Source: a virus
Virus record (IMG/VR): IMGVR_UViG_3300022305_000519
Length of the DNA: 38,429 bases
Direction: 5' to 3' (one strand)
Shown: piece by piece, positions 1 to 38,429 of the stretch
How positions within the stretch are numbered: position 1 is the first letter of the stretch
Layout of the letters: each line of letters opens with the position of its first letter
Position numbers and translations under genes: made by a program
The notes under the pieces: generated by a model
Seen by the model: only the letters and a program-made list of their open reading frames with translations
The model's database searches: none
What the model was told of the DNA's origin: nothing

Positions 1-238
1 TGCCTACCTGAGCGGTGCCAACCTGATCGGTGCTTACCTGAGCGGTGCCTACCTGCGCGGTGCTTACCTGCGCGGTGCCGACCTGAGCGGTGCTTACCTG
101 AGCGGTGCCAACCTGAGCGGTGCCAACCTGATCGGTGCTTACCTGAGCGGTGCCGACCTGCGCGGTGCCTACCTGCGCGGTGCCGACCTGAGCGGTGCTT
201 ACCTGAGCGGTGCTTACCTTGCGGGTGCCGAAAATGCA
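1..238 (+). repeat. 15-nt tandem repeat array encoding G-A-[Y/D/N]-L-[S/I/R] pentapeptides; continuation of the array at 38334-38429
   Basis: Direct reading: units ggtgc(c/t)-(t/g/a)ac-ctg-(agc/atc/cgc) repeat back to back with period 15. The array degenerates at about 224-238. Confidence 0.95.
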
Positions 239-5421: not shown

Positions 5422-5630
5422 AGCTTAGTCCAGACGTTATCAAAAATAACTCTTAGCTTGTAGAGCCAAACCACTCGCAATACAAGAAGCAATAGCGATA
5501 CTAGACCGCTTTGCATATGGCTTACATTTGCGCCGACAAGCATATACAGAAAAGGGATAGCAGCAATATTGAAAAGAAGTATTCCTAAAGATGCTATGAA
5601 CGCTTCTGTAAGATGCTTTTTGTTCAGCAT
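5373..5630 (-). CDS. Small two-TM membrane protein (85 aa)
   Basis: The ATG overlaps the upstream TAA (TAATG). TM segments AFIASLGILLFNIAAIPFLYMLVG and GLVSLLLLVLRVVWLY. The 3' end overlaps the next gene by 49 nt. Confidence 0.5.
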   Translation of the reverse strand: MLNKKHLTEAFIASLGILLFNIAAIPFLYMLVGANVSHMQSGLVSLLLLVLRVVWLYKLRVIFDNVWTKLCSLLVSLATTLKIRR

Positions 5631-6094
5631 TAGATAGGCTCTTCAGTCCAGAGGAAAGTAACAAACAGAGGCTTTCCGTACAAGGTGCTACGCACAAACA
5701 AACTATTCCCTTGGCCTAGCAGAATAGGAAACTCCAATTCAACTAGTTTACCTCCTAGGTTTTCATTATTCCAGATTTGTCCACCGTCATACTCTGGGCC
5801 TACTTTGATTTCATTGCGGGCATGAGCCGATGAATATGGACGTTGAGCGCCATCAATCAAAGGAAGGCCGCGAGACTCTCCAAATGATGCGCCAGTCATC
5901 ATCGGGCCACCGCGAAGACAGACGGTAAACCCATCACTGCAAGATACCCACATCTTATTCAATCGCGCCCTATGGGTTGAATCGATAGGCACATACAACT
6001 CACAATGCGCCCGAGCAAGCTGCCCTGTATTGCCTTGTACGTTGTTAATCTGATCTTGCGTAATGAACGCTGGGCGCATGAATTGCTGTGTCAT
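5630..6094 (-). CDS. Hypothetical protein downstream of the tail fibres (154 aa)
   Basis: Internal ATG (MTQQFMRPAF...) of tracked ORF 5630-6151. It starts next to the stop of the upstream gene. Confidence 0.65.
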   Translation of the reverse strand: MTQQFMRPAFITQDQINNVQGNTGQLARAHCELYVPIDSTHRARLNKMWVSCSDGFTVCLRGGPMMTGASFGESRGLPLIDGAQRPYSSAHARNEIKVGPEYDGGQIWNNENLGGKLVELEFPILLGQGNSLFVRSTLYGKPLFVTFLWTEEPI

Positions 6095-6095
6095 A

Positions 6096-6584
6096 TTAAA
6101 TCCTGTAGGTTCCAGAAACACGGAAAATAGAAGTACCTGCCAAATCAGCAACTGTTAAAGCATTAGCTCCACCAGCAGTAAAACGAAATAATCTGATTGT
6201 CGATGTATTTTCAACATTATCAGCCATTAATGCTGTAGTAGCTGTAGCCGCAAGATTTGTAGCTGTTACAGAAAATGCCGCCTTGTTGTTTGTAGCGCTA
6301 TTGCTGTTAAATGGAAGATTTGCAATAGTCACACTACCAGCAGCAAGCGTACCTAATGTAGCAAGCTGCACATTACATACAAAATGAATAAAACTTCCTA
6401 CTCTTTCATAGTATCCATACTGAACTGAATATGTAGGAGTGCCACCTCCAGAGCTAACAACTGTTGGAGTAAATGTGTTTTCTTCAAAATCTGGCTTTTC
6501 GTTAACTATAGTTGCAATATCTCGATACCATCGAGCAGTCTCTGCATCGACGTTTTGCCTGGGAGTTACGTTTAGCTTCTTCAT
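6096..6584 (-). CDS. Tail-fibre-associated protein (162 aa)
   Basis: Thr/Ala/Ser/Asn-rich, beta-like composition. ATGA-type coupling to the 360-aa fibre gene. Confidence 0.6.
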   Translation of the reverse strand: MKKLNVTPRQNVDAETARWYRDIATIVNEKPDFEENTFTPTVVSSGGGTPTYSVQYGYYERVGSFIHFVCNVQLATLGTLAAGSVTIANLPFNSNSATNNKAAFSVTATNLAATATTALMADNVENTSTIRLFRFTAGGANALTVADLAGTSIFRVSGTYRI

Positions 6585-7666
6585 TAAACCTGATATTCAG
6601 TGATTCGGATAAACGAATTAATCACGCCACCCAATTGACGAGCCGATGATGCTCCATTAAATGTAGTTGTACCTGCGCTGCTAGAACCAGCACGAATTTT
6701 AAACGTAGTCGCCGAAGTTGTACCAGCTACCATAGTATGTGAAAGAGTCAAACCAGCAGGGAAAGTACCGCCAATACCTGCATATGTTGCAACAGACAAT
6801 GCATTTGCGGTAGTATCTTGAAACAAGGCCATGATAAATGCAGGCCCTGCTGAATGTGAGAAATTACCACATGCATCAATAACAAGAATATTACTTGAAT
6901 TAGTTGGAGTAATTGCCAAAGTCATATACTCGTTACCCTCAGTATTTTGAGGGATAGTATCGTCTGCTGGAATAGTAGTAGTACCAGTTCCTACAGCTCC
7001 AGTAATTGAGTAAACAGTTTGTTTAATTACCTTAGCAGTAGTCCAAGTGGGAGCAGATGTGCCACCACTTGTAAAAAATTGACCGCTGGTTCCAGCAGCA
7101 AGAAAAGCCGTATTATCAGTTGACGTTTGATAGGCAATTTGCCCGCCAGCACCACCGGCAATATTTGTCGCTTTTGTTGCAGTGGTTGCAGTAGTTACAC
7201 TTGTTGCTGATGTTGCAGTATTCGCAGCACCGGGCGCAAGGCTTTTAACCATGTAGCTAACTACATTCCATCCATTAGGCGTACTGTTTGGAATTGCTAC
7301 ACAAGAATCTCCTGCTGCTGTCGTAATATTTGCGCTACCTGGGAGATTCAGAGTAGTAGCATTATGCGTCAGCGTAAGAGCGCCAGTAAATCGAATAAAT
7401 CTAGGCCCGTTATATGTCGTACCAAAACTTGTAATAGTAGTTGTACCGCTAATCTCAACAAACATGGCATTCTGTGCTCCAATGTCTGTCGTAGTCGCAG
7501 AGGCAAGCGTTACTTGGTCTGTAAAGCCTTTACCATCACGAAGGGTAGCGATAAACGCAGCGTATTGGCGTAGGTAGTTATCGGCAGTGATAGGGCTCTC
7601 GGAACCTGCCGGGCTGTTGCTGGATTCTGTTTGCGAAAGATCGCTGATTGCGCTAGGTACGGGCAT
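6584..7666 (-). CDS. Tail fibre or receptor-binding protein (360 aa)
   Basis: N-terminus MPVPSAISDLSQTESSNSPAG..., then long Thr/Ala/Gly/Ser-rich beta-type sequence. Its position follows the ejection-protein-like genes. Confidence 0.65.
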   Translation of the reverse strand: MPVPSAISDLSQTESSNSPAGSESPITADNYLRQYAAFIATLRDGKGFTDQVTLASATTTDIGAQNAMFVEISGTTTITSFGTTYNGPRFIRFTGALTLTHNATTLNLPGSANITTAAGDSCVAIPNSTPNGWNVVSYMVKSLAPGAANTATSATSVTTATTATKATNIAGGAGGQIAYQTSTDNTAFLAAGTSGQFFTSGGTSAPTWTTAKVIKQTVYSITGAVGTGTTTIPADDTIPQNTEGNEYMTLAITPTNSSNILVIDACGNFSHSAGPAFIMALFQDTTANALSVATYAGIGGTFPAGLTLSHTMVAGTTSATTFKIRAGSSSAGTTTFNGASSARQLGGVINSFIRITEYQV

Positions 7667-21599: not shown

Positions 21600-22034
21600 T
21601 TAAGTGATCTTGAATACACCGACCGTAGCCGTCTGGTCTAGGTCTACCGTTACGGTTTCAGCGGCTGCAACGGCTTGGGATGAGCCGTAGTCCCAATACC
21701 CAACAACAGTACCGTTAGCGCCTTGCAATACGGTCTTGTTGACTAACAAGGCATAGCGGAAGGTAAGCCCGCCACCTGATGCAGTCCATACGGCAGGATC
21801 AGCCAGAACAAGCACGAAGTCCGAACCGTTCATGCCTGCGCTAGTCGTGCTGACGTTGTTACCGCCTGCTGTATATCCACCAGACGTAGCAAGGTCAGTC
21901 GTGCCGGAAGTAAACACCTTAGACGCTGGAGCGCCTGAAGCCAGTGCTATAGCCCATTGGTCCGTCCCGGCATTAATGCCTTCGGCCAAGTCTTCAATGG
22001 CTGCTGTAACTTTTACATAACTTGCGGTAGGCAT
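21600..22034 (-). CDS. Hypothetical virion-module protein (144 aa)
   Basis: The start is coupled to the portal stop. Beta-rich sequence. Confidence 0.6.
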   Translation of the reverse strand: MPTASYVKVTAAIEDLAEGINAGTDQWAIALASGAPASKVFTSGTTDLATSGGYTAGGNNVSTTSAGMNGSDFVLVLADPAVWTASGGGLTFRYALLVNKTVLQGANGTVVGYWDYGSSQAVAAAETVTVDLDQTATVGVFKIT

Positions 22035-24292
22035 TATTCAACTCCTGAAATATTACCGTCAGCGTCTCGGACTACCTTCTTAGGCTTGCCGACCTGTTGC
22101 AGTGCCGCCGACATGCCTTCCATTGCTTTGGCAAGTACCTGATTGTCCATAGACTGCGCTTTTAGGCCAGCGTCTACCATCTTGCTTTCCTGCTGGGCAC
22201 CGGCAATGGTCAGCTTAACCTGTGCGTCTAGCTCACCGAGATAACGCTTCGTAGCGTCTTCCATAGCCTTGATATCGCGCTCGTTCTGAATCTTCATTTC
22301 CTCGATCTGTGCATCGTACTGCGCTTTCAATGCTTCTCGTTCACTGTCGCGCTGGTCATTACTGGCCTGTAGCTGCAATTCCATCTCGCTTTGCCGCTGC
22401 TCGAACTCCATCTTCATCCTGTTAAGTTCCTGCTGCATAGTCTGCTCTGCTTGGAACTTCTGCACTTCCATCTGCTGAGTAGCCTGGAATTTCTGAATCT
22501 CGGCCTGCTGGCGCATCTGCTCAACTTGCACTTTAGGATCAACCTGAGGCTGCTTCGGCGGTGCTTTCTCAGGGTCTGTCCAGAACTCGTTAACGTCCTT
22601 AAATCCTGCTGTCTTCGTGATGCGTGCCAGCGTGTTATAGATGTTCTTGGGGCTTGCAATCCCTACTTGTGCGGCCTGTGCCTGCATCTGTGCAATCTGC
22701 GTTAGGACAGTGATTTGGCTAGTGCGGTCGCCCATACCAAACGTCATGCTGATCTGTAGATCACTGCGCTTAACCCATGTCCTCGGGTCTACAGGCACCC
22801 ATTCACCGTTCAAGCGCACCATTTCTTGCTGTCGGCTATGGGTAAGGGTAATGAAATGGACAAGCTGGAACAGCGATTTAATGCCTGTTTCGGCAAACAC
22901 CCTGGCAATGAACTTGATGCGCTGCTGTGCTGCTGTGAGCATCATAGTGTTAGCTGTAGCGCCTGCCTGATTGTTCAGCACATCAGGGTTAATTCCTTGC
23001 GTCTGGTCGCTTACACCCGTTCGACGCTGTGCGATGCCATCCATATACTGCATCATGGGGATAGCAATCTGCCCATTGGTAGGGTGCGTCAGCGGGAAAA
23101 ACGGGCTAGGGTTCTTTGCTCCATTGAATCGGACCATGCCACCAGGACGACTATCTAGCATGTCGTCAAGGTTCACGCTGTTTTCGTCAACACCATACCG
23201 ACCGTTATTGGCAAGGTACTGATTATCGAGTGCCCCCCGAAGTAGTGCAGTTTGGATGCGTTGCAAGTCCATAACAGAATCGGCCACGGACAAACCATAG
23301 TGCTGATGCGGCAGCGGAGTCGGGCACATCGCCACCACGGGGATGATTGTGCATTCTTCGTTATGCAGAATCTTGCTGCCAACCACAATAACGTGGCGCA
23401 GTTCTGCTCGGCCATCGTCGTCATAGTCAAACCTGATCCAAGTCTCACGCACTTTAACCCGGCGCATTGCAGGGTCGATATTCTCACCCTCTCGGTCACG
23501 CATGGGGCTGTAGTCGTTGCGGCTGACTTGCTCCCAATCGCCTTTACTGTCTCCATCGTCCTGAATGTCGTCAGGAACGTCAAAATCCATCAATCTAAGT
23601 TCTGTCAGCGTCTTATATTCGCTGTGCTGAACAAATGCAACTCTTTCATCTTGGAGGCTTACGCCGCGTGCATTCTCGTCAACCTTGATGTGTTCAGGTG
23701 CGATATTGACTATTTTGACCATGTTGCGCGGCTTTTTGCGCTCAAGTCTCACGGAATGGGTGATTACCGGGAATCCGGTCATCATGTCCAGGCTGGCTTC
23801 TTCCTCATGCTCGACAATCTCAATATCCTTGTCTTGCATCAAGATTACCCATTCCTCGGGCGTCAGATCATCGTAATACTCGCTTGTAATGTCCTCGGAA
23901 TCATCCCAATAGGCTTTTACATATCCATTTTTCTGGATCAAGGCATCGTGCGCCCAGCCATACCAAACATCAAACCAACTATTACGCTGAGTAATCTGAT
24001 AGTTTACGTAATCGCTTTCCTGCTCGGCAGCTTTGGTGTCTTCGGGGCCACGCGGCATGAATGACACAAGTTCATCGCCACTACAGAAAATGTCCGCAAG
24101 TTGCGGCTTTAGCCACTCGACTGTATCCCAGACTGTACGGGAAATGACCTGACTGCGGCCTTCTACCTCATTGCCGAGCGGCTTGCCTAGGTAGTAATCA
24201 AGCGAGTCTGTGCGATCTTCCTGGAGATTGCCGTACGTTTCTGCGTTGGATTCGTATGTCTCAATAGCATTGATTAGCTGGGAGTCATCCAT
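22034..24292 (-). CDS. Portal protein (P22-like, with a long C-terminal coiled-coil barrel segment)
   Basis: 752 aa, downstream of TerL. The N-terminal block ...YYLGKPLGNEVEGRSQVISRTVWDTVEWLKPQLADIF... is typical of P22-type portals. The C-terminal region of about 150 aa is Gln/Glu/Met-rich and helical. Confidence 0.9.
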   Translation of the reverse strand: MDDSQLINAIETYESNAETYGNLQEDRTDSLDYYLGKPLGNEVEGRSQVISRTVWDTVEWLKPQLADIFCSGDELVSFMPRGPEDTKAAEQESDYVNYQITQRNSWFDVWYGWAHDALIQKNGYVKAYWDDSEDITSEYYDDLTPEEWVILMQDKDIEIVEHEEEASLDMMTGFPVITHSVRLERKKPRNMVKIVNIAPEHIKVDENARGVSLQDERVAFVQHSEYKTLTELRLMDFDVPDDIQDDGDSKGDWEQVSRNDYSPMRDREGENIDPAMRRVKVRETWIRFDYDDDGRAELRHVIVVGSKILHNEECTIIPVVAMCPTPLPHQHYGLSVADSVMDLQRIQTALLRGALDNQYLANNGRYGVDENSVNLDDMLDSRPGGMVRFNGAKNPSPFFPLTHPTNGQIAIPMMQYMDGIAQRRTGVSDQTQGINPDVLNNQAGATANTMMLTAAQQRIKFIARVFAETGIKSLFQLVHFITLTHSRQQEMVRLNGEWVPVDPRTWVKRSDLQISMTFGMGDRTSQITVLTQIAQMQAQAAQVGIASPKNIYNTLARITKTAGFKDVNEFWTDPEKAPPKQPQVDPKVQVEQMRQQAEIQKFQATQQMEVQKFQAEQTMQQELNRMKMEFEQRQSEMELQLQASNDQRDSEREALKAQYDAQIEEMKIQNERDIKAMEDATKRYLGELDAQVKLTIAGAQQESKMVDAGLKAQSMDNQVLAKAMEGMSAALQQVGKPKKVVRDADGNISGVE

Positions 24293-24458
24293 TTATGTCC
24301 TTTGGCGGCCTGCCGGGTTTGGGACGCGACTCAAGCGCATCTAAGCGAGATTTTAGCGAATCTATCTCACTTTGCAAAGCGTTAGATTTAATCAATCGCT
24401 CAAGCTCTGCAATCTTTGCGGCTTGTTCTTTTAGCTGAACTGCTATATGGATACTCAT
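24285..24458 (-). CDS. Small coiled-coil protein (57 aa) between TerL and the portal
   Basis: The ATG overlaps the TerL TAA (TAATG) and the stop overlaps the portal start by 8 nt. Below the 60-aa track cutoff. Confidence 0.5.
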   Translation of the reverse strand: MSIHIAVQLKEQAAKIAELERLIKSNALQSEIDSLKSRLDALESRPKPGRPPKDING

Positions 24459-25768
24459 TAAATCACTCCGTTTGGTCGATATTTTATGGGCACAGCTTTA
24501 GGCTTAGGCTCTTCATAAGCCACTGCCATAAGCCCGAAAGCGTCACTTCCGTGGCTGGCCCAATCATGCTCGGGGCCTAGTCCGATGCCGCGAATATCGT
24601 CGCGCTTCTCGTGATACCAGCCTAATGCATCTCGGCCAGCCTGCGTCGTGTCTTCATTGAACCAGATATTAGTGAACAGCCTGCGGACGGCTTCAATGCG
24701 CTTTTTGGCAGCTCCTGCGCCCTGGTTCGGGATAACCGTCACGGTGTACCCTGCAGCACGCAATGCGCTCTCATAGCTCACATCATGCACCTTGTCATGG
24801 GTAGCTCCGTCATGTGGAAGCCAGAACTGCGCTTTATCAGGGCTGTATCCGCGCTCACGGCACCAAGCAAGGTGTGCCGATAGCGGCTGACCTACTGCCT
24901 CGTAATAGTCCAGTGTCCGCACTTCCTTTCCGATAAACTGTACCGCCCACATGGCAAAAGCGTCTGCCCTGGCACCAGTACCGCCAATATCGCAGAATAG
25001 CCTGATGGTCATCAGCGGATCAGGGCCAACCCTACCAATCCTTCCTGCCGTCTTGGCTTCTAACAGGTGTTTGGCAAAGTATGCGCCCTCCACAATGCTG
25101 GCGTAGTCGCCTTCCCATATATGAGGAACTTGCTCTGGGCGCTGGCGCATGTCGTCTTCCATCGCACGTTTCAGCACCTCAGGGAACTTGGGGTTATCTC
25201 GCCAGTTCAATTGCACGATCTTGTGGCGCGGATTAGTGCTGTTCTTAAACCTCTTGTCAGTTGCGCTACCCTTTCGTTTAGGGTTCCAAGTCACCCACAG
25301 TTCAGCATTCCAGTCCTCTCCCTCTTCTCGGAGAGTCGGGATAAGCGTGACCCATGCATCATCGCTAACAGGCTCTGCCTCATCTACCCAGCACAGCAGA
25401 ATCCTTCCCTTAGACTTAATCGAGGCGATGTTTCTATCTAGGCCAGCAAAGGCAAAGTGGATACGCCCATCCTTGCTTTTAATGTACTTGTCGCCTACAT
25501 CGTAGTATTCCAGCAGCCAAGGCTCTTCCTCAATGGCTCTCTTGCATTCTTCCAGGCTGGATTCGTCCAAGCTGTTCATGAACTGCCGCGCACACAGCAG
25601 AATTCCTCTAATTCCTGCCTTACCGTACTGATAGCCCTTTACAGCCACCATCTTGGCAAATGATCGAGTCTTGCCAGAGCCACGGCCCCCATAGGAGCCG
25701 CGCACGTCTGCATCCCCTTCAAATACGGGGATTAGCTTTTCAGGGAGTTGGATGCTTACCGCTGCCAA
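24458..25768 (-). CDS. terL: Terminase large subunit
   Basis: Walker A SYGGRGSGKTRSF near the N-terminus, a Walker B-like LLCWVDEAE, and a C-terminal nuclease-type domain. TTG start, bounded upstream by an in-frame TAA. Confidence 0.9.
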   Translation of the reverse strand: MAAVSIQLPEKLIPVFEGDADVRGSYGGRGSGKTRSFAKMVAVKGYQYGKAGIRGILLCARQFMNSLDESSLEECKRAIEEEPWLLEYYDVGDKYIKSKDGRIHFAFAGLDRNIASIKSKGRILLCWVDEAEPVSDDAWVTLIPTLREEGEDWNAELWVTWNPKRKGSATDKRFKNSTNPRHKIVQLNWRDNPKFPEVLKRAMEDDMRQRPEQVPHIWEGDYASIVEGAYFAKHLLEAKTAGRIGRVGPDPLMTIRLFCDIGGTGARADAFAMWAVQFIGKEVRTLDYYEAVGQPLSAHLAWCRERGYSPDKAQFWLPHDGATHDKVHDVSYESALRAAGYTVTVIPNQGAGAAKKRIEAVRRLFTNIWFNEDTTQAGRDALGWYHEKRDDIRGIGLGPEHDWASHGSDAFGLMAVAYEEPKPKAVPIKYRPNGVI

Positions 25769-27411: not shown

Positions 27412-27573
27412 TTAATTCACATCTTGTGGGTAGTTATATCTAACCCATTGCGCCATTGCCTGCCCAATAACACCGCATCGAACTAAGTTATATAACTCGT
27501 CATCAGAGCATTTCTCTAGCTCTTGTTCTAGCTGTGCCATGAGCATGGCAATGGTGACTAGATCAGCGGTCAT
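27412..27573 (-). CDS. Small hypothetical protein (53 aa)
   Basis: ATGA overlap with the upstream H-NS-like gene. Below the track cutoff. Confidence 0.45.
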   Translation of the reverse strand: MTADLVTIAMLMAQLEQELEKCSDDELYNLVRCGVIGQAMAQWVRYNYPQDVN

Positions 27574-27749
27574 GCAATTCGATATTGTTCCTTATCCTTT
27601 CCCTGCAAGAACTTCGGCAAGCGACCGCGCCCGGCCCATGTTTCACCATTCGGCCCCTTGAACTTTACTGGAAGTGTGCGGCCTTTTAGCTTGCTAGGCG
27701 CTTTCTGTTGCACTTCGGTTACTTGTACGGTTTCTTGAGTCTGTTCCAT
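27570..27749 (-). CDS. Short H-NS-family DNA-binding-domain protein (59 aa; C-terminal domain only)
   Basis: Hand translation: MEQTQETVQVTEVQQKAPSKLKGRTLPVKFKGPNGETWAGRGRLPKFLQGKDKEQYRIA. It carries the core H-NS/MvaT/Bv3F motif (..G.tW.GrGr.Pkw/fl). Below the track cutoff. Confidence 0.65.
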   Translation of the reverse strand: MEQTQETVQVTEVQQKAPSKLKGRTLPVKFKGPNGETWAGRGRLPKFLQGKDKEQYRIA

Positions 27750-27863
27750 GTCAATCCTATTGGTTTATGAACTGTTATTTTAACACTCTTCCCATGTTTT
27801 TTCCACTGTTTAAACGATCAGTGTTTTATTAGGGTTTTTACTAGTAGAAAAAACATTTTGGAT

Positions 27864-27872
27864 TGGCATAAT
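27864..27872 (+). promoter_or_regulatory. Extended -10 promoter candidate (TGgCATAAT) for the plus-strand moron operon
   Basis: tggcataat read at 27864-27872, about 35 nt upstream of the first plus-strand gene. No good -35 element. Confidence 0.35.
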
Positions 27873-27905: not shown

Positions 27906-28097
27906 ATGCGAGTCATCATCAAAGACAAGGACACCGAAGCTGCTTACAAGTTTGCCGACCAATGGGCAAATACTGCTCAGGTTATGGCAGAGCAGCTTGA
28001 GGATGAAGGCACAATTCTTAGTGTTGAGGCATCTAAGAAATGGTATCGGATTATGGATGCTTTCCGCCAAGCCGCCGATGAAGTTGGCAAGGTCTAA
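27906..28097 (+). CDS. Hypothetical protein (63 aa), first gene of the plus-strand accessory operon
   Basis: A strong RBS within the motif CAACTAGGAG lies 7 nt upstream. The antisense ORF 27810-28070 lacks an RBS. Confidence 0.65.
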   Translation: MRVIIKDKDTEAAYKFADQWANTAQVMAEQLEDEGTILSVEASKKWYRIMDAFRQAADEVGKV

Positions 28098-28144
28098 AAA
28101 ATGGAAGGCTTGCTCTTCAATACTTTGATGTACTGGTGAAATAA

Positions 28145-28723
28145 ATGCAAACTACTCTCAATAAAATCCGTTCGCATGGTCCGTGTGCTAGTGGATGGAA
28201 AAAACTTCTCGCGCACCTGGGAAAGACTGAGGCAGACAACGAACCGCTGTCTATCCTCACCATTATTGAAAGCAACGGCCTTGATGACGCCTTGTGGTGC
28301 CTGCGTGCCGTAGACGGAAGCGATAAAGAGATTCGCTTGTTTGCCGTCTGGTGCGCCCGGCAAGTGCAGCACTTGATGACCGACAAGCGAAGTATTGATG
28401 CTCTTGATGTTGCCGAAAAATATGCATCAGGCATGGCTACTCGTGATGAATTGGAACGCGCGGAGTCTGCTGCGGAGTCTGCTGCGTGGTCTGCTGCGTG
28501 GTCTGCTGCGCGGTCTGCTGCGGAGTCTGCTGCGTGGTCTGCTGCGTGGTCTGCTGCGGAGTCTGCTGCGCGGTCTGCTGCGCGGTCTGCTGCGTGGTCT
28601 GCTGCGGAGTCTGCTGCGCGGTCTGCTGCGTGGTCTGCTGCGTGGTCTGCTGCGGAGTCTGCACAAAAAACAGAATTGATCCGTATTTGCAAGGAAATCG
28701 AATGCGCTTCCAACAAATCCTAG
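28145..28723 (+). CDS. Paralog A (192 aa): conserved N-terminal domain of about 105 aa plus 17 x [E/W/R]-S-A-A tandem repeats
   Basis: The N-terminus MQTTLNKIRSHGPCASGWKKLL...LWCLRAVDGSDKEIRLFAVWCARQVQHLM...ATRDELE aligns residue for residue with the product of 31234-31773. Confidence 0.8.
   Translation: MQTTLNKIRSHGPCASGWKKLLAHLGKTEADNEPLSILTIIESNGLDDALWCLRAVDGSDKEIRLFAVWCARQVQHLMTDKRSIDALDVAEKYASGMATRDELERAESAAESAAWSAAWSAARSAAESAAWSAAWSAAESAARSAARSAAWSAAESAARSAAWSAAWSAAESAQKTELIRICKEIECASNKS
28460..28663 (+). repeat. Perfect 12-nt tandem array, (gag|tgg|cgg)-tct-gct-gcg, 17 units
   Basis: Direct reading. Only the first two bases of each unit vary. There are no stops in any of the six frames. 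Confidence 0.95.
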
Positions 28724-28905
28724 ACCTTGCCCGTCACCATGCCGATAATGGTGCTGAAATGCAAACCTCTGCTGATCTGTGCATCCAAGAAGCTCTTGAA
28801 GCATGGCACGAAGGCAAATGGAACACTGCTAAACAGTGGGCTATTAAATCGCTCTCTCACTCTGTGGGAGTTCTTCATTCTGACTATATTGAGGCAAGCA
28901 AATGA
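28702..28905 (+). CDS. Hypothetical protein (67 aa)
   Basis: Internal ATG of tracked ORF 28486-28905, with AAGGA upstream. The N-terminal part of the tracked ORF is a repeat-frame artefact (VCC repeats). Confidence 0.6.
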   Translation: MRFQQILDLARHHADNGAEMQTSADLCIQEALEAWHEGKWNTAKQWAIKSLSHSVGVLHSDYIEASK

Positions 28906-29003
28906 GCTTCATCATCCTATCAGCATCTATCGGCCTGTTCTGCTACATCGCATGGCGTATCGTTGACCGTATCGCTACTGTGATAGTAGACGAACTGTTT
29001 TAA
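28902..29003 (+). CDS. Small single-TM protein (33 aa)
   Basis: ATGA overlap with the upstream stop. TM segment FIILSASIGLFCYIAWRIV. Followed by a terminator. Confidence 0.4.
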   Translation: MSFIILSASIGLFCYIAWRIVDRIATVIVDELF

Positions 29004-29020: not shown

Positions 29021-29048
29021 AAAGGCCCTTCGGGGCCTTTTTGTATTT
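29021..29048 (+). terminator. Intrinsic terminator ending the plus-strand accessory operon
   Basis: aaaggccc-ttcg-gggccttt hairpin followed by ttgtattt. It also faces the convergent TLP gene. Confidence 0.8.
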
Positions 29049-29172: not shown

Positions 29173-29994
29173 CTATCTTGCGTTAAACCGCTCTGCCACC
29201 AGTGGTTCAGCGCCATCAAAAATGACAGCCTCGCGGTTCGTCACAGTGCCAAGCGGCGGCATGTCAAGCGCGGCGCACACGGACCGTTCGACCACCAGCG
29301 CCGGGTTTGTGCGTGCCTCGTGCTTCGGTGGCAAACGGTCCAGTTCTTCGGTGCTGAACGGCACGCTCACGGTACGCCGCTGCACGTAGGCGCCACGCTT
29401 GAACAGCGGCGGGTAGTCGTTCCAGTTCACACCCTTAGCGTGCAGCATGTCATGCTTCTGTGGGTTGTTCTTGCCCGTCAGTGCCTTATGGCTGTAGTGC
29501 GCCGAAGCTGCCATGCTCACGCTGTTCTTAGTGGCGTCCCACTCGCGCCACAGAAACACATTCGCGCCTTCGGCCCGATTCGGCACATTCCACACGCGGG
29601 CGTCAAATGTCGGCAGGCGATTAGCATATTGCGGCATGCGTTCCAGCACCAAGCGGTAGAAGATCAACGTGGCCTGGGCTGCAAGCTGGCTTGTCATCTT
29701 CGCCACGCGGCCATCAAACCAAATCTGGCTCTGTGTCGTGCTGGCGTGCCAAGCCAGTGTGATTTCGTCGCTCTGCGTGTAGCCCATGCAGGCACCGGTG
29801 TCGCGCACCAGTGCGGCGGTCGTGCCCAGCATGCAGCCAGAAAAACCGGAATCGAATGGGCGCTCCATACCTTTTGTAAAGCTGTGGAATGCGCGGCCAT
29901 CAATCCGCGCCATGGCTGGCAGCAGCGGCATCAAGCGCCGCCCGGCTTCCATGCCCTCGTACAGTTTCATTCGGTCGCCTAAATCATCTTTCAT
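29173..29994 (-). CDS. Thg1-like protein (TLP), tRNA(His) guanylyltransferase-family 3'-5' nucleotidyltransferase
   Basis: Family blocks present: GDRMKLYE, ARIDGRAFHSFTKG..RPFD, GYTQSDEITL, FDGRVAKMTSQLAAQAT, FDARVWNVP, FLWREWDATKNS and KGVNWNDYPPLFKRG. The metal-binding Asp (DGR) and the acidic pair (SDE) are both retained. Confidence 0.9.
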   Translation of the reverse strand: MKDDLGDRMKLYEGMEAGRRLMPLLPAMARIDGRAFHSFTKGMERPFDSGFSGCMLGTTAALVRDTGACMGYTQSDEITLAWHASTTQSQIWFDGRVAKMTSQLAAQATLIFYRLVLERMPQYANRLPTFDARVWNVPNRAEGANVFLWREWDATKNSVSMAASAHYSHKALTGKNNPQKHDMLHAKGVNWNDYPPLFKRGAYVQRRTVSVPFSTEELDRLPPKHEARTNPALVVERSVCAALDMPPLGTVTNREAVIFDGAEPLVAERFNAR

Positions 29995-30715: not shown

Positions 30716-31036
30716 CTAACTTGTTGCTCGATCTTGCCTGCGGTTGCTTGCTTCCTGGCTTCTCCACACTTCGATTCGTAGCTCTGCCGCTGTCATCTGC
30801 CACTTCATCGTTTCCTCTGCCTCTACAGCAGCCCTAAGCCCCTCTAGTAGCTCTCGGTACTCTGGATGCGCGTAGGCATACGCTTCTTTGGCTGCAATCG
30901 TTCCTTCTGTCTCGTTCATCAGCAGGCTTTTCTTGCTTCTCAGGAAGTTCTCGATGTACACGCGGTTAGCCTTGGCCTGTGCAAACTTTGGCGCGTTTTC
31001 TATTAGGAAGTTGACTGCTTTGTTAGGGTCAGTCAT
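30716..31036 (-). CDS. Hypothetical helical protein (106 aa)
   Basis: Clean ORF, coupled to the upstream 70-aa gene (8-nt overlap). Confidence 0.7.
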   Translation of the reverse strand: MTDPNKAVNFLIENAPKFAQAKANRVYIENFLRSKKSLLMNETEGTIAAKEAYAYAHPEYRELLEGLRAAVEAEETMKWQMTAAELRIEVWRSQEASNRRQDRATS

Positions 31037-31241
31037 TTTTCATTGCTGCGTCAAATTCAATCGCAGATTTTGCAATTTGCGTCATTTGGATATCAGATAA
31101 GCGATTACTAAAAATCTTAGTAGACCCACCCTTATAAATTGCCATCAACGCGCCAAGTGCAGAATTTCTTTGCTGTTGCAGTTCCTCCACCATGCGCTTT
31201 AGGCTGTCCAGGGCTTCGGCTTCGACTTCGATCTTAGGCAT
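31029..31241 (-). CDS. Hypothetical protein (70 aa, MPKIEVEAEALDSLKRMVEEL...)
   Basis: Internal ATG of tracked ORF 31029-31490, with AGGAGG 6 nt upstream. The PT-rich N-terminus of the tracked ORF is a repeat-frame artefact. Confidence 0.65.
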   Translation of the reverse strand: MPKIEVEAEALDSLKRMVEELQQQRNSALGALMAIYKGGSTKIFSNRLSDIQMTQIAKSAIEFDAAMKND

Positions 31242-31773
31242 TGTCAGCCTCCTGGCAGATTTCACGCAGGCGCTTTTCTTGGGAGTAGTAGGCGGCGTAG
31301 GCGTCGGCGGCGTAGGCGTCGGCGTAGGCGTAGGCGTAGGCGTAGGAGGAGGCGTAGGCGGCGGCGTCGGCGGCGTAGGCGTCGGCGTCGGCGTAGGCGG
31401 CGTCGGCGGCGTAGGCGGCGGCTGAGTCGGCGTAGGCGGCGTAGGCGGCGGATCGTGCCGACTCCAATTCATCCCGCGTTGCCATTCCATTCGCGTATCG
31501 CTCCGCTACATCCAGCGCACGAATACTACGTTCGTCTTTCATCAGGTGCTGTACTTGTCGGGCGCACCACACAGCATAAAGCCGGATTTCCTTGTCGTGT
31601 CCGTCCACAGCACGCAGGCACCAAATAGCATCGCGCAAGCCGTTGCTGTCAATGATGGTAGCGATGCTGATTTCTTCGTCATCTGCCTCAGTCTTTCCAA
31701 GGTTACGCAGTAACTTTGCCCATCCAGAATTGCATGGGCCTTTGGCTCGGATTTTGTTGAGGGTGGTTTTCAT
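31234..31773 (-). CDS. Paralog B (179 aa): same N-terminal domain as 28145-28723 plus an Ala/Tyr/Asp dipeptide-repeat C-terminus
   Basis: MKTTLNKIRAKGPCNSGWAKLL...IWCLRAVDGHDKEIRLYAVWCARQVQHLM...ATRDELE. The RBS lies within CAACTAGGAG. Confidence 0.8.
   Translation of the reverse strand: MKTTLNKIRAKGPCNSGWAKLLRNLGKTEADDEEISIATIIDSNGLRDAIWCLRAVDGHDKEIRLYAVWCARQVQHLMKDERSIRALDVAERYANGMATRDELESARSAAYAAYADSAAAYAADAAYADADAYAADAAAYASSYAYAYAYADAYAADAYAAYYSQEKRLREICQEADNA
31285..31450 (-). repeat. 6-nt-period tandem array (plus-strand gcgtag/gcgtcg/gcggcg units; minus strand GCC-TAC / GCC-GAC / GCC-GCC)
   Basis: Direct reading. The region is open in several frames, which produces the PT-rich and GV-rich shadow ORFs. 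Confidence 0.9.
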
Positions 31774-31802
31774 TTCTCTCTCCTAGTTGTTGCTGATGAT
31801 TC

Positions 31803-32313: not shown

Positions 32314-32481
32314 TTACAGCTTTGCCTTTGCAATTGCTTGTACTGCCTCTAGCTGTGCCACCAAGCCAAGGTTTTGCTGATTCAATTCCGCAATCAGGTT
32401 TGCCTGCTGCTGGGTGAGATTGGCTAGGCTTGAGACTAGCTCCATCATTTTGTCAATCGCTTCTTCTTGATCTGGTGTCAT
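32314..32481 (-). CDS. Small coiled-coil protein (55 aa)
   Basis: ATGA overlap with the NinG stop. Below the track cutoff. Confidence 0.5.
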   Translation of the reverse strand: MTPDQEEAIDKMMELVSSLANLTQQQANLIAELNQQNLGLVAQLEAVQAIAKAKL

Positions 32482-33038
32482 TGCTTTTCCTTCAAGTCTT
32501 TTAGCTTTTGACGGTAAGTTTCTTTGATCTGGATCAATTCTTCACGCTTCCACTTCCTAGGCGTGTTTTCTGTTTCCAGCGCCTCGACTCTCTCTACACC
32601 TATACGCTCAATCAGCCTGATTCTGTAGTCAACCGCATTCCCTGCTTTCCACTGGTTGCACTTGACACATTGAGCATGGCAATTATCTTCGTGGAATCTC
32701 AGGCGTGATGCGCTTCCTACGCTTCGATAGTGGCCTGCATCCCTTCCAGCATGTAGCTCTGTCATTGATCCAGGAGGCTTGCCACACGAAATACAAGGTT
32801 GCTGGCTGTCTCTGCACCTAACCCATACGTTAAACGCTGTCTGAGCCTCTTTTAGTAGCTCTGGAATGGTCTTTATTGCTTCCTTGCGCTTCTTGAATGT
32901 CTCTCGCTCTGCTTTCCTGTCTGCTTTCACCTTTTTGCTGGCACAGATAGGAGAACACACAGACTGCATTGGTCTTGCTGGCATGAACTTGGATAGGCAT
33001 GTTTTGCATACCTTCTCGCGCAGTTCAGTTGTCAGCAA
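32478..33038 (-). CDS. ninG: NinG/Rap-family recombination endonuclease
   Basis: N-terminal CKTCLSKF...CSPICA Zn motif, basic KK/RK stretch, central CISCGK...HYRSVG...RFHEDNCHAQCVKCN block typical of lambda NinG. TTG start. Confidence 0.85.
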   Translation of the reverse strand: MLTTELREKVCKTCLSKFMPARPMQSVCSPICASKKVKADRKAERETFKKRKEAIKTIPELLKEAQTAFNVWVRCRDSQQPCISCGKPPGSMTELHAGRDAGHYRSVGSASRLRFHEDNCHAQCVKCNQWKAGNAVDYRIRLIERIGVERVEALETENTPRKWKREELIQIKETYRQKLKDLKEKQ

Positions 33039-35176: not shown

Positions 35177-35689
35177 TTAACAATAGGTGTTTACCCTAAG
35201 CAAAAACTCTATAAGCTCGTTCGTCGCTTCTTTCTTATCGCCGCTTCCTACTTTGTTTCTAATCAATCCGTGATGATCTGCAATCAGTCGTATGCATTTT
35301 TCAGCGTTCCCACTCTCTCCAGTGTGTTCGTCTGATTCATCCATGCAGACATATCCTGGCAGTCGATACACAATCCATCCAATGGATTCAAATTCTGCGT
35401 CCCGCTTAGCATCTTTTTCTTTGTCATGATGAAATGCAGCGCCATCGCATTCAATTGCTATTTTCGCAACAGGATTGGCAAAGTCTGCAAAGTACCTTAA
35501 TACCGGATACTGAGGATAAAAAACCGCGTTTACATTCCTTATTTTTTCCCATATCGCAAGCTCGATTGGCGTCATATTTACGAATGCATTCCATGCGTAT
35601 GGCGCAAAAGCCCATTCGTTTCTTTTACAAGCAAGAATTTTTCTCTCTTCATCTTTATAGAAGCGCCTAGCAAGCTCAAAATTGTTCAT
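35177..35689 (-). CDS. DUF559 / Vsr-like (restriction-endonuclease-fold) endonuclease-domain protein
   Basis: FADFANPVAKIAIECDGAAFHHDKEKDAKRDAEFESIGWIVYRLPG matches the DUF559 core (D..p..k.aIE.DG..H....D..Rd..l...Gw.v.R). Confidence 0.7.
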   Translation of the reverse strand: MNNFELARRFYKDEERKILACKRNEWAFAPYAWNAFVNMTPIELAIWEKIRNVNAVFYPQYPVLRYFADFANPVAKIAIECDGAAFHHDKEKDAKRDAEFESIGWIVYRLPGYVCMDESDEHTGESGNAEKCIRLIADHHGLIRNKVGSGDKKEATNELIEFLLRVNTYC

Positions 35690-36860: not shown

Positions 36861-37081
36861 GCTGCTTGCTTTCGTAGGATTGCAGGAACTTCATCTGCAT
36901 GATCAAGAAAATCAACAAAATCAGAATCAACAAACCGTGCAGAGCATTCTGATTTATCCACAGCATCCATGATATAGATACGGCCTGCGATTTGATCAGT
37001 GAAGTCTGCCGGGAGTGGCTTGGTAGTGCTGAATTCGATAAGAAGGTATTTCTTGGTGAGGTTTTTCATGTCGGTTAGCAT
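36857..37081 (-). CDS. Hypothetical acidic protein (74 aa)
   Basis: ORF coupled to both neighbours. An alternative ATG lies at 37069. Confidence 0.55.
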   Translation of the reverse strand: MLTDMKNLTKKYLLIEFSTTKPLPADFTDQIAGRIYIMDAVDKSECSARFVDSDFVDFLDHADEVPAILRKQAA

Positions 37082-37422
37082 TTCTGCCCGTAGCTTTTAA
37101 GGTTGCTGTGATCTGATCCTGGTCGCTGGTACTGGCTACCAAACTCGCCGTCACCTCTGACATAAGTAGTACGCTTCCAGTCCAGTTCACGTACTGTAGC
37201 TTTTGCGTCGTTCGTGTCAATAGCGCTTCTACCTAGTACAGTGATATGGTAGATACCGTTTTGCTCGTACAGATAGCCAGATTCAGCCATTTCTGCAAGC
37301 CACTTTTCAACGATTACCGGGCTTGTAATTCGCTCAAGGTTTCCGTGCGTGAAATGCTTGGCGTTGCGGGGGCTGCTGGCGATTGTGGTTAGGACTTGGC
37401 GCTTGCGCTCTGAAAGTTTCAT
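37075..37422 (-). CDS. Putative wHTH DNA-binding protein (115 aa)
   Basis: N-terminus MKLSERKRQVLTTIASSPRNAKHFT...WLAEMAESGYL suggests a MarR/wHTH-like fold. Weak evidence. Confidence 0.5.
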   Translation of the reverse strand: MKLSERKRQVLTTIASSPRNAKHFTHGNLERITSPVIVEKWLAEMAESGYLYEQNGIYHITVLGRSAIDTNDAKATVRELDWKRTTYVRGDGEFGSQYQRPGSDHSNLKSYGQKC

Positions 37423-38190: not shown

Positions 38191-38216
38191 AACTCACATC
38201 GCAACTAGGAGTAAAC

Positions 38217-38429
38217 ATGAAACAGAAAATCTTCCATCGTTCCAATAGCGCAGTTATCTTTGAATGTGAAGTGCCTGACGAGAATAGCGGAATGGCAATG
38301 CGCTATGCGCTTGAGAAAGCTACGCAAAGCGGTGCCGACCTGATCGGTGCCGACCTGATCGGTGCCGACCTGATCGGTGCCTACCTGAGCGGTGCCAACC
38401 TGATCGGTGCTTACCTGAGCGGTGCCTAC
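38217..38429 (+). CDS. Pentapeptide-repeat protein, N-terminal part (3'-partial in this window; continues at nt 2/53-559)
   Basis: ATG at 38217 with an AGGAG RBS. Translation [71 protein letters not shown]. The frame runs off the end of the window. Confidence 0.85.
38334..38429 (+). repeat. 15-nt tandem repeat array (start of the pentapeptide array)
   Basis: ggtgccgacctgatc x3, then variant units. The last 52 nt are identical to nt 1-52. Confidence 0.95.

Follow-up and report, generated by a model that had tools for sequence, protein, structure and literature searches.

Proteins with in-frame coding tandem repeats of the variable-number tandem repeat (VNTR) or contingency type include the streptococcal M and alpha-C proteins, as well as MSP3 of Plasmodium vivax, an Ala-rich polymorphic coiled coil. 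In phages, hypervariable binding proteins are known to be generated by diversity-generating retroelements (DGRs), and both designed helical-repeat binders and minimalist synthetic paratopes composed of Tyr, Ser, Trp, Arg, Asp, and Gly are known. Imm5, a mostly α-helical predicted immunity protein, is associated with DYW-deaminase and CdiA-CT toxins, as well as with polyimmunity loci, and repeat-protein immunity scaffolds are represented by Imm-ank and ImmHEAT (Zhang et al. 2012, PMC3482391). The VIPR vrRNA arrays are defined by 9–16 tandem YNNGG units with a 5-nt period, located in intergenic regions beside a RAMP-like vipr gene (bioRxiv 10.64898/2026.04.26.720920). Here we describe gene B, an open reading frame (ORF) of 179 residues located at positions 31234–31773 on the minus strand of the IMG/VR virus record IMGVR_UViG_3300022305_000519, together with its paralog A (28145–28723, plus strand, 192 residues). 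The whole stretch of 38,429 nt that was analyzed is referred to below as the window. Both genes belong to the phage protein family phrog_18326, which forms a divergent branch of the Imm5-like superfamily and is carried by phages; in this branch, the Ala helices have been turned into a repeat-encoded, hypervariable, predicted hairpin. No earlier description of such a hairpin on the Imm5-like branch was found in the literature.

Domain organization of protein B and its paralog

Gene B matches the hidden Markov model of phrog_18326 with E = 3.4e-47 over residues 2–175, corresponding to profile positions 4–192 of 203 and thus to a full-length match, and paralog A, which was found by tblastn, matches the same model over its full length with E = 2.2e-56. 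A protein identical to B (P0001) comes from a JGI metagenome contig, and the exact sequence of B occurs only in its own sample, with five contigs on record, three of which were read. Protein B starts with an N-module (residues 1–58; 31600–31773, minus strand) that follows the pattern TTLNKIR..PC..GW..LL..LGKT.ADDE....II.SNGL.DA.WCL. This module is the hallmark of the family and accounts for the majority of the invariant alignment columns (T3, T4, L5, I8, G17, W18, L22, K27, D31, S43, N44, G45, D48, W51, and C52); a Pfam scan of B returned no match to it, and no Pfam model of it exists. The region that follows (residues 59–105; 31459–31599, minus strand; EIRLYAVWCARQVQHLMKDERSIRALDVAERYANGMATRDELES) comprises the Imm5-like core helices, assigned on the basis of hhalign and of the bridging proteins described below. 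The hypervariable Ala-rich tail (residues 106–164; 31282–31458, minus strand) is encoded by a degenerate (KMC)n triplet repeat, which yields Ala, Tyr, Asp, and Ser, and corresponds to the arms and the turn of the predicted hairpin. In translation the tail reads ...AAYAAYADSAAAYAADAAYADADAYAADAAAYASSYAYAYAYADAYAADAYAAYY, and the protein ends with the conserved closing segment QEKRLREICQEADNA, which, together with the stop codon, occupies 31234–31281 on the minus strand. The Q-E-K-x-L-R-E-x-C motif of this segment is common to the family, with Q165 nearly invariant, and since it comes after the array in frame, the reading frame of B is validated. Residues C14, C52, C70, H76, and the C-terminal Cys may form a Cys/His cluster, which would be a candidate metal site.

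The array of B is a degenerate triplet array, in which 56 of the 57 codons have the form [G/T][A/C]C (31 GCC, 14 TAC, 7 GAC, and 4 TCC) and adjacent codons for Tyr and Asp are rare. Tandem Repeats Finder reports periods of 6, 12, and 18 nt at 73–75% match, and the nucleotide self-identity is 0.70 at a lag of 6 nt, 0.57 at 3 nt, and 0.20 at 5 nt. The array also contains an internal duplication of 37 nt (31300–31336 and 31363–31399). GCC accounts for 31 of the 32 Ala codons of the tail, and the N-domain of B uses all four Ala codons. With 7 Asp, 14 Tyr, and one Arg as the sole basic residue, the tail carries a net charge of −6 over its 59 residues, and the whole protein contains 28 Asp and Glu residues versus 21 Lys and Arg residues. 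The array in the tail of paralog A (28460–28660, plus strand) is much more regular and consists of 17 near-perfect units of 12 nt, (GAG/TGG/CGG) TCT GCT GCG, encoding (E/W/R)-S-A-A, with Tandem Repeats Finder giving a period of 12, 16.5 copies, and 89% match. Its Ala codons GCT and GCG alternate rigidly, and its net charge is −2. The autocorrelation of Ala at a lag of four residues is 0.94 in A, compared with 0.07 in B, from which the period-4 pattern is thus absent.

The N-terminal 107 codons of A and B align without gaps, with 78.5% amino acid identity and 69% nucleotide identity, and the similarity lies far beyond chance (tblastn E = 4e-55 over residues 1–103). Self-comparison of the window showed no DNA similarity shared by the two arrays, and the C-terminal segments of the proteins are alike. 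The initial annotation of this locus had therefore read the genes properly in most respects: translation reproduces exactly the ORF and the strings quoted for B, and the gapless alignment of about 105 residues, the different tails, and the similar short C-terminal segments have all been confirmed. The corrections are that gene B lies on the minus strand, with paralog A on the opposite one, and that the identity exceeds the value of roughly 70% given there. The 6-nt period ascribed to the tail of B is a fair description in view of the self-identity at that lag, although an imperfect one for a degenerate triplet array.

Within the N-domains of A and B, dN is 0.21 and pS is 0.75 (saturated), giving dN/dS of ~0.05, which indicates strong purifying selection on domains that diverged long ago. 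The A–B pair ranks only 7th–10th of 263, and each copy has closer relatives elsewhere. One such relative of A is P0037, which is 91% identical and shares its C-terminal peptide; the tail of P0037 is quite different, and the protein is 44 residues shorter overall. Because the synonymous sites are saturated and closer relatives are found elsewhere, A and B are old paralogs, with no recent duplication. While the N-domains diverged anciently, the Ala codons within the arrays are homogeneous, and the arrays therefore arose recently at the DNA level.

Conservation of the Ala-rich tail in the phrog_18326 family

The family, annotated in PHROGs as being of unknown function, is large. A search of 5.8 billion proteins found at least 3,934 homologs at 90% clustering, and among representatives of 50%-identity clusters 5,790 match the N-domain profile at E ≤ 1e-3 and 1,776 at E ≤ 1e-10; almost every one has 140–270 residues. 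In cultured phages, homologs are present in those of Pseudomonas (AF, PPpW-3), Burkholderia (Bcep176 gp36, vB_E177, and vB_E169), Erwinia (phiEt88), Curvibacter, and Vibrio. All are labeled 'hypothetical protein', with the exception of the Curvibacter one, labeled 'tail fiber protein'. Cellular genomes contribute only 53 loci among ~186,000 species genomes, mostly on contigs of metagenome-assembled genomes.

The tails were surveyed in 179 unique genes extracted from 220 loci. In 178 of these genes, the conserved N-domain is separated from the Q-E-K-x-L-R-E-x-C segment by an Ala-rich tail, with a median length of 63 residues (range 14–249) and an Ala content of ~55%. A four-residue Ala period is the best fit in 143 of 170 tails, and the usual unit is A-A-[W/R/G]-[A/D], encoded by GCN GCN NGG GMY. 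In 1,440 units of the form AAxyAA, position x is W in 30%, R in 29%, and G in 18% of cases, with an NGG codon in 74%, and position y is A in 44% and D in 34%, with a GMY codon in 78%. In 164 of 178 genes, the tail draws on a narrower set of Ala codons than the N-domain does. Homologs from Vibrio phages, with ~35% identity in the N-domain, still carry Ala tails, and Athena1_0028 has an SAARSAAESAAR tail, resembling that of paralog A. Tyr-rich tails resembling that of B are found in 5 of 178 genes; judged by these comparisons, the tail of B is an unusual flavor of a universal family feature and not an independent invention.

These results change the interpretation of the two tails. The initial annotation proposed that two copies of one gene had filled the same internal position with unrelated microsatellites, a view that is not upheld: the Ala tail is ancestral to the family, being retained at ~35% N-domain identity and present in Imm5-like proteins with a different N terminus, and has therefore been inherited and remodeled rather than acquired twice. 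Although ancestral, the repeats are not fixed. The accompanying idea of selection for a repetitive, fast-evolving Ala-based module has fared better, since the tail is found in 178 of 179 genes and its sequence and length vary almost everywhere, including between relatives that are identical outside it (see below). Two paralogs with different Ala tails are thus one instance of a general property of the family, not a special event of this genome.

A paralog on the same strand within 2.5 kb accompanies 22 of the 179 genes, and two other viral contigs carry two distant family copies each. Wherever several copies are present, their N-domains are always 77–87% identical and their tails differ. In one locus (L005, positions 5471–7600 of IMGVR_UViG_3300033076_000420), four family copies stand in tandem on one strand, with N-domains 79–87% identical and all tails different, an arrangement that recalls a homogeneous polyimmunity locus. 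Another protein (P0131, 590 residues) is a fusion of two family copies with non-repetitive tails and a C-terminal extension. The family genes belong to early or accessory regions, where their neighbors are small genes of unknown function and recombination genes are close by. Clustering of the ORFs within ±2.5 kb of the 179 genes revealed no conserved partner gene, with only same-family paralogs and ordinary early genes (SSB, Erf, exonuclease) recurring.

Variation of the repeat arrays

Comparison of closely related loci shows that the arrays are unstable. Two loci from different metagenomes (L017 and L020) share 8,016 nt of flanking sequence with no mismatches, and their sole difference is a 21-nt in-frame gap in the array. 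Three other pairs, with identical N-domain DNA, differ in their arrays by 12 nt (L155 and L148), 48 nt (L072 and L075), and 204 nt (L116 and L033), and a pair with N-domain DNA 99% identical (L040 and L150) differs by 54 nt; the array differences across the compared pairs are all multiples of 3. The prophages vB_E177 (PQ789817, L222; 44,373 bp) and vB_E169 (PV072755, L223; 44,385 bp) were induced from different strains of Burkholderia thailandensis, originating from different soil sites (PMC12860723). Their genomes are identical save for one block, comprising positions 37079–37139 (61 nt) in the former and 37079–37151 (73 nt) in the latter, which lies inside the array of the homolog (vBE177_00053 and vBE169_00053, respectively) and contains one extra 12-nt unit together with reshuffled W/R and A/D units. 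The array is the fastest-changing site of the genome in these relatives.

Two features characteristic of VNTR-type genes are present. The tandem units of A and B are multiples of 3 nt, with the C-terminal motif remaining in frame, and the homologs exhibit polymorphism in the number and order of repeats between otherwise near-identical genomes. The changes fit slippage or unequal recombination among units of 3–12 nt, which would be combined with single-base steps within sets of mutationally connected codons. Such sets are TGG/CGG/AGG/GGG and GAC/GCC/GTC/GGC, and the codons GCC/GAC/TAC/TCC of B form a closed set of this kind.

Relationship to Imm5-like proteins

The top two Pfam families below threshold are PF21805 (Imm5_like) and PF14423 (Imm5), found with 8 and 6 of 82 members, respectively, the best E value for PF21805 being 8e-4. 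Scans of A and B against NCBIfam and PADLOC gave nothing useful. Two bridging proteins (L203 and L211) combine the same N-module with a canonical core and pass PF21805 (26.9 versus 25 bits); L211, which is P0121, is named 'putative immunity protein' by NCBI, and in P0122–P0125 the family N-module is likewise joined to a canonical Imm5-like core. Alignment by hhalign of the family set (A1) with an Imm5-like set (A2), consisting of P0126–P0129 without the N-module and including the PF21805-annotated P0128, gave a probability of 97.5% and E = 5.5e-12 over 96 columns. The aligned region covers residues 51–151 of B (profile columns 53–150) and includes the non-repetitive core, EIRLYAVWCARQVQHLMKD--ERSIRALDVAERYANG versus KLRLVACDIARTVLHLVPEGEDRPRIAIETAERYARG. 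In a Foldseek search of the BFVD viral models, the match was A0A6J5RNF9, an 'Imm-5-like domain-containing protein', with E = 4e-4, probability 1.0, a TM-score normalized to the query (TMq) of 0.51, and a root-mean-square deviation of 3.6 Å over 122 columns. These data support remote homology of residues ~53–150 to Imm5_like and Imm5, as opposed to membership in those families. The core signature of PF21805, ..C..A...L..VP.GE.RPR.AIETA..(W/Y)A.GE, is not found in B, where the corresponding region is VWCARQVQHLMKD--ERSIRALDVAERYANGM; the helix pattern and AE..A.G are kept, P.GE.RPR is lost, and a two-residue gap is present.

Three of the Imm5-like proteins (P0126, P0127, and P0129) have another N-module (C..A..W...AW..CPRGDWMLW), a canonical core, and an Ala-rich W/R/D tail, and end with ADIVRKH.PTPP. 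The Ala-repeat tail is thus shared by several architectures within the superfamily.

Like Imm5_like and Imm5, the members of the A/B family are small, cytoplasmic, and mostly α-helical proteins, as far as can be predicted, with homologous core helices, and Ala-rich W/R/D helices are found at the C-terminal end of the canonical relatives as well. The tandem multi-copy arrays of the family are similar to polyimmunity loci, by resemblance only. Unlike Imm5_like, proteins A and B carry the family-specific N-module, stay below the Pfam thresholds, and have the signature replaced, and their Ala part is predicted to be a long, repeat-encoded, hypervariable hairpin closed by the conserved C-terminal motif. 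Also, in contrast to the Imm5 immunity proteins, the family is phage-borne, with no toxin gene adjacent.

Predicted structures

The structures of both proteins were modeled with AlphaFold2, with a mean predicted local distance difference test (pLDDT) score of 86.2 for B and 89.8 for A. In these models the N-domain forms a compact helical unit that scores above 90 (92–97 for the N-module of B), and the conserved C-terminal segment has pLDDT of ~90. Both tails are predicted to form a long helical hairpin on the conserved head domain. In the model of B, a helix comprising residues 100–132 is followed by a turn (133–137, pLDDT ~55) and a return helix (138–178), whereas in the model of A these elements comprise residues 100–138, 139–143, and 144–191, respectively. 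The turn in A falls midway in a perfectly repetitive sequence, and its position therefore seems to be set by the length of the array and not by a turn motif. A turn set in this manner would let the hairpin tolerate the gain or loss of units.

A sequence-profile search of the PDB gave only a chance match (E = 0.74), and the Foldseek search of the PDB gave nothing below E = 1. The top entry in the latter was 7jtu_B, a chain of the entry for a cytidine-deaminase type VI secretion toxin of P. syringae, with E = 1.2, which is suggestive but not significant.

Comparison with other repeat and hypervariable proteins

The family shares with the VNTR proteins the short units that are multiples of 3 nt, the polymorphism in length and order, the helical Ala-rich scaffold, and the conserved flanks. 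The VNTR surface antigens belong, however, to cellular pathogens exposed to antibody pressure, whereas the proteins described here are intracellular phage proteins with no signal peptide, and their units are only 3–12 nt long and encode a four-residue motif. As in the DGR variable proteins, such as Mtd of Bordetella phage, a conserved scaffold is combined with a localized hypervariable, probably ligand-binding region. In contrast to DGR proteins, the family has no template repeat, reverse transcriptase, or adenine pattern; the variation fits slippage or recombination, and the variable region is predicted to be a helical hairpin and not a C-type lectin fold. Repeat-protein binders also rely on a helical repeat scaffold, and the residues that dominate the variable positions of the family are W, R, G, D, Y, and S. 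The units of the family are nevertheless different, since they consist of 3–4 residues within one continuous helix pair rather than of structural repeats of 30 residues, and binding is putative.

Functional interpretation

The data are best explained if A and B are small, cytoplasmic, all-α accessory proteins of a tailed phage. Their conserved N-terminal domain of ~105 residues consists of the family N-module and the Imm5-like core helices; the Ala-rich segment would prolong the last core helix outward, turn, and return as a second helix, and the C-terminal QEK.LRE.C would likely anchor the returning helix on the N-domain. Slippage of units or unequal recombination, along with single-base changes, would change how many non-Ala residues there are and in what order they occur, with the frame and the Ala scaffold retained, making the hairpin a rapidly diversifying protein-binding surface on which the variable residues would be exposed. 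By means of this hairpin the phage protein would, in infected or lysogenic cells, bind and neutralize a partner that itself varies. The analogy with immunity proteins suggests that this partner is a toxin or a defense effector of bacterial or rival-phage origin. The presence of two or more copies with different tails would widen the range of partners. The binder function is suggested because the family is phage-borne, early or accessory, and multi-copy with different tails, and because it combines a conserved head with a labile hairpin, an alphabet of W/R/G/D (or Y/D/S), and homology to immunity proteins. We estimate the probability of this explanation as a whole, including identity, architecture, variation of the hairpin, and binder function, at about 0.55; its descriptive part taken alone is held with high confidence, and the binding or neutralizing function, argued by analogy, is put forward tentatively.

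Several observations weigh against this explanation. The array of B itself was not seen to vary, and the scan of one metagenome revealed no phage nearly identical to this one (best N-domain identity 78%). Assembly artifacts could in principle produce the indels seen among metagenomic sequences, although the pair of Burkholderia isolates argues otherwise. The pLDDT of the mid-tail of B is only 54–78, and both the geometry of the hairpin and the packing of the C-terminal end are properties of the AlphaFold2 models. Neither A nor B has a Pfam match even at E ≤ 1, the gathering threshold of PF21805 (25 bits) is not reached, and the canonical RPR..AIETA is replaced by RS..ALDVAE. No toxin gene was found within ±2.5 kb of the 179 genes, and the neighbors in the window have no informative matches; with no adjacent toxin or partner, the analogy with immunity proteins is therefore without support from genomic association. 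In the literature, including that on repeat-based phage anti-defense, no description was found of the family, its repeat motif, or PF21805/Imm5_like. Finally, some members are nearly tailless (L103, P0173) and others have non-repetitive tails (L073, P0131, P0265), and the repeat array is thus not strictly required for the existence of the protein. Since tails that are non-repetitive but helical, or nearly absent, occur in homologs, the arrays are probably expanded versions of an ordinary helical segment.

The near-tailless members and those with non-repetitive tails (L073 and P0265 in particular) also speak for the main rival explanation, according to which the Ala segment is a tolerated helical spacer drifting by slippage, with only the N-domain and the C-terminal motif being functional. 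The range of tail lengths, from 14 to 249 residues, agrees with such a spacer, as does the tail of B, which is almost devoid of higher-order period and resembles a decayed (GCC)n tract, and the homogeneity of the codons shows recent slippage that needs no selection. We nevertheless consider this explanation unlikely. The tail is kept in 178 of 179 genes, at N-domain identity down to 35%, and in Imm5-like proteins with another N terminus, and its non-Ala positions keep a restricted alphabet (W/R/G, then A/D) with no random drift. Moreover, every observed indel is in frame, and the sole change between two 44-kb genomes adds a unit and reshuffles the W/R and A/D units.

That the aromatic and acidic tail of B might act as a nucleic acid mimic or a decoy surface was raised in the initial annotation as speculation. 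Such a mimic would draw off host proteins that bind DNA, for example restriction enzymes, and would be in line with the Asp and Tyr content and net negative charge of the tail and with the excess of acidic residues in the protein. The phage also encodes a pentapeptide-repeat protein, the fold of which is known from DNA mimics, and this bears on the lifestyle of the phage only. This suggestion has become highly improbable, as the tails of the family are close to neutral, with a median charge of −2 (interquartile range −4 to 0), Arg at 7% versus Asp at 8%, and only 6% of the tails at −8 or below, and the tail of A has a charge of −2 as well. Foldseek showed no structural match to any mimic, and a charge of −6 over 59 residues falls far short of that of known DNA mimics such as Ocr and ArdA.

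Even less can be said for a virion protein of the tail-fiber type, with repeats forming a fibrous coiled coil, a role that we regard as extremely improbable. It is hinted at by the GenBank label of P26059A_0094 and by a weak, compositional match of A to a PHROG tape-measure family (E = 0.006), whereas the family genes are found outside structural modules, in regions of early, recombination, or accessory genes, the proteins have only ~180 residues and are modeled by AlphaFold2 as a globular head with one intramolecular hairpin, and Foldseek found no match to the fold of a structural protein. P26059A_0094 (L085; Curvibacter phage P26059A, KY981271, 2992–3579) is the homolog labeled 'tail fiber protein', and its gene is surrounded by small early genes, with a Lar-like restriction alleviation gene nearby. 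Context and predicted fold argue that its label is a misannotation caused by the Ala-rich repeats.

A dedicated mutagenic machine, that is, a DGR or a similar templated system diversifying the tail, would account for the concentration of variation at the codon positions NGG and GMY, and would suit the established role of DGRs as a source of hypervariable phage binding proteins, yet it is refuted for the window and is given almost no weight. Neither array has a template copy in the window, where no ORF of at least 120 residues with a YxDD motif is present either. Adenine-directed mutagenesis is rejected as well, as the synonymous third-position A of GCA is invariant in the array of phage AF, and near-identical genomes differ by indels and reshuffling of units and not by scattered substitutions at A positions. 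Lastly, the possibility that the array acts as a nucleic acid, either as a guide RNA repeat of the VIPR type or as another RNA or DNA element, with an incidental ORF, is refuted by periodicity and conservation of the frame, because even though the plus strand of the B array is GGC-rich and phage VIPR RNAs are tandem YNNGG repeats (bioRxiv 10.64898/2026.04.26.720920), the longest GGYNN run in the window has 4 units, the self-identity of the B array is 0.20 at 5 nt versus 0.70 at 6 nt, the arrays lie inside ORFs with flanking conserved motifs in frame in hundreds of homologs, and all indels are multiples of 3.

Genomic context

A Shine-Dalgarno-like sequence, AGGAGAG (31778–31784, minus strand), was read 4 nt upstream of the ATG of gene B. 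Downstream of B, gene calls and sequence indicate an ORF of 70 residues (31029–31241, minus strand), the ATG of which overlaps the stop codon of B by 8 nt, and translational coupling of the two is likely. It is followed by an ORF of 106 residues (30716–31036, minus strand), which overlaps likewise; no family matches were found for either of these downstream ORFs. As by-products of its triplet repeat, the array of B also generates long spurious ORFs, both in different frames and on the opposite strand. One of them, of 153 residues and Pro/Thr-rich (PPTPPTPTQPPPTPPTP...), occupies 31029–31490 in another frame of the minus strand, and a real gene is likely for only its last 70 codons, which begin at 31241. 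The other, of 77 residues and Gly/Val-rich, occupies 31192–31425 on the opposite (plus) strand.

Paralog A belongs to a cassette of four ORFs (27906–29003, plus strand, by gene calls) that is transcribed against the surrounding genes, which is a moron-like arrangement. Upstream of this cassette, a consensus scan identified a promoter-like site (27845–27872, plus strand; 9 of 12 matches), a weak candidate, since sites of this kind are no more numerous than expected from shuffling. Just past the end of the cassette at 29003, a terminator-like hairpin, AAAGGCCC-TTCG-GGGCCTTT, with an 8-bp stem containing five GC pairs, is followed by a T-run (29021–29040, plus strand). A mini-protein of 59 residues (27570–27749, minus strand) adjoins the cassette and is essentially the C-terminal DNA-binding domain of H-NS (PF00816, 29.1 bits versus a cutoff of 25.6).

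The window is essentially a whole genome of a tailed phage; its gene calls were taken from the source contig JGI Ga0233289_14670508 (38,631 bp). It encodes an SU10-type portal (22034–24292), a large terminase (24458–25768), and NinG/Rap (32478–33038), and further a scaffold protein, Erf, and a primosomal/replication protein. A Thg1-like protein of the tRNA-His guanylyltransferase family (29173–29994, minus strand; phrog_4717, E = 4e-81; PF04446) may play a role in tRNA repair or counter-defense; ARAGORN detected no tRNA genes in the window. The gene of a protein of 170 residues (35177–35689, minus strand) lies beside the DUF1376/primosomal replication gene. This protein, possibly a homing or Vsr-like nuclease, has precomputed matches to DUF559 and MTES_1575, with an endonuclease-like fold. 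The pentapeptide-repeat gene is split across the ends of the window (1–219 and 38213–38429, plus strand). It starts with MKQKIFHRS... at ~38213, continues with repeats of 15 nt that translate as A(D/Y/N)L(S/I/R)G, and resumes at position 2, with a non-repeat C-terminal domain at its end. As the halves of this gene are found at both ends, the contig probably represents a complete phage genome, either circular or with terminal redundancy, the assembly of which was broken inside the repeat.

Biological implications

We can speculate that the family represents a natural, slippage-driven 'binder library', in which an Ala hairpin displays the small, binding-prone alphabet of W, R, G, D, Y, and S, and the shuffling of repeats keeps pace with variable toxins and defense effectors of hosts or rival phages, as a non-templated, protein-level counterpart of a DGR on an intracellular inhibitor. 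This broader proposal is rather doubtful in our judgment. The gene itself, unnamed so far, is present in thousands of phage genomes, often in multiple copies, and a large family of 'hypothetical' proteins, of which at least one member is now misannotated as a tail fiber, would gain a name in annotation pipelines. The minimal grammar A-A-[W/R/G]-[A/D] may be of interest to protein designers. If the hairpin is indeed the fast-evolving surface of an inhibitor, the family would constitute a new class of counter-defense or immunity factors, diversified by in-frame shuffling of micro-repeats on an Ala scaffold, a mechanism distinct from DGRs and from arms races driven by ordinary point mutations.

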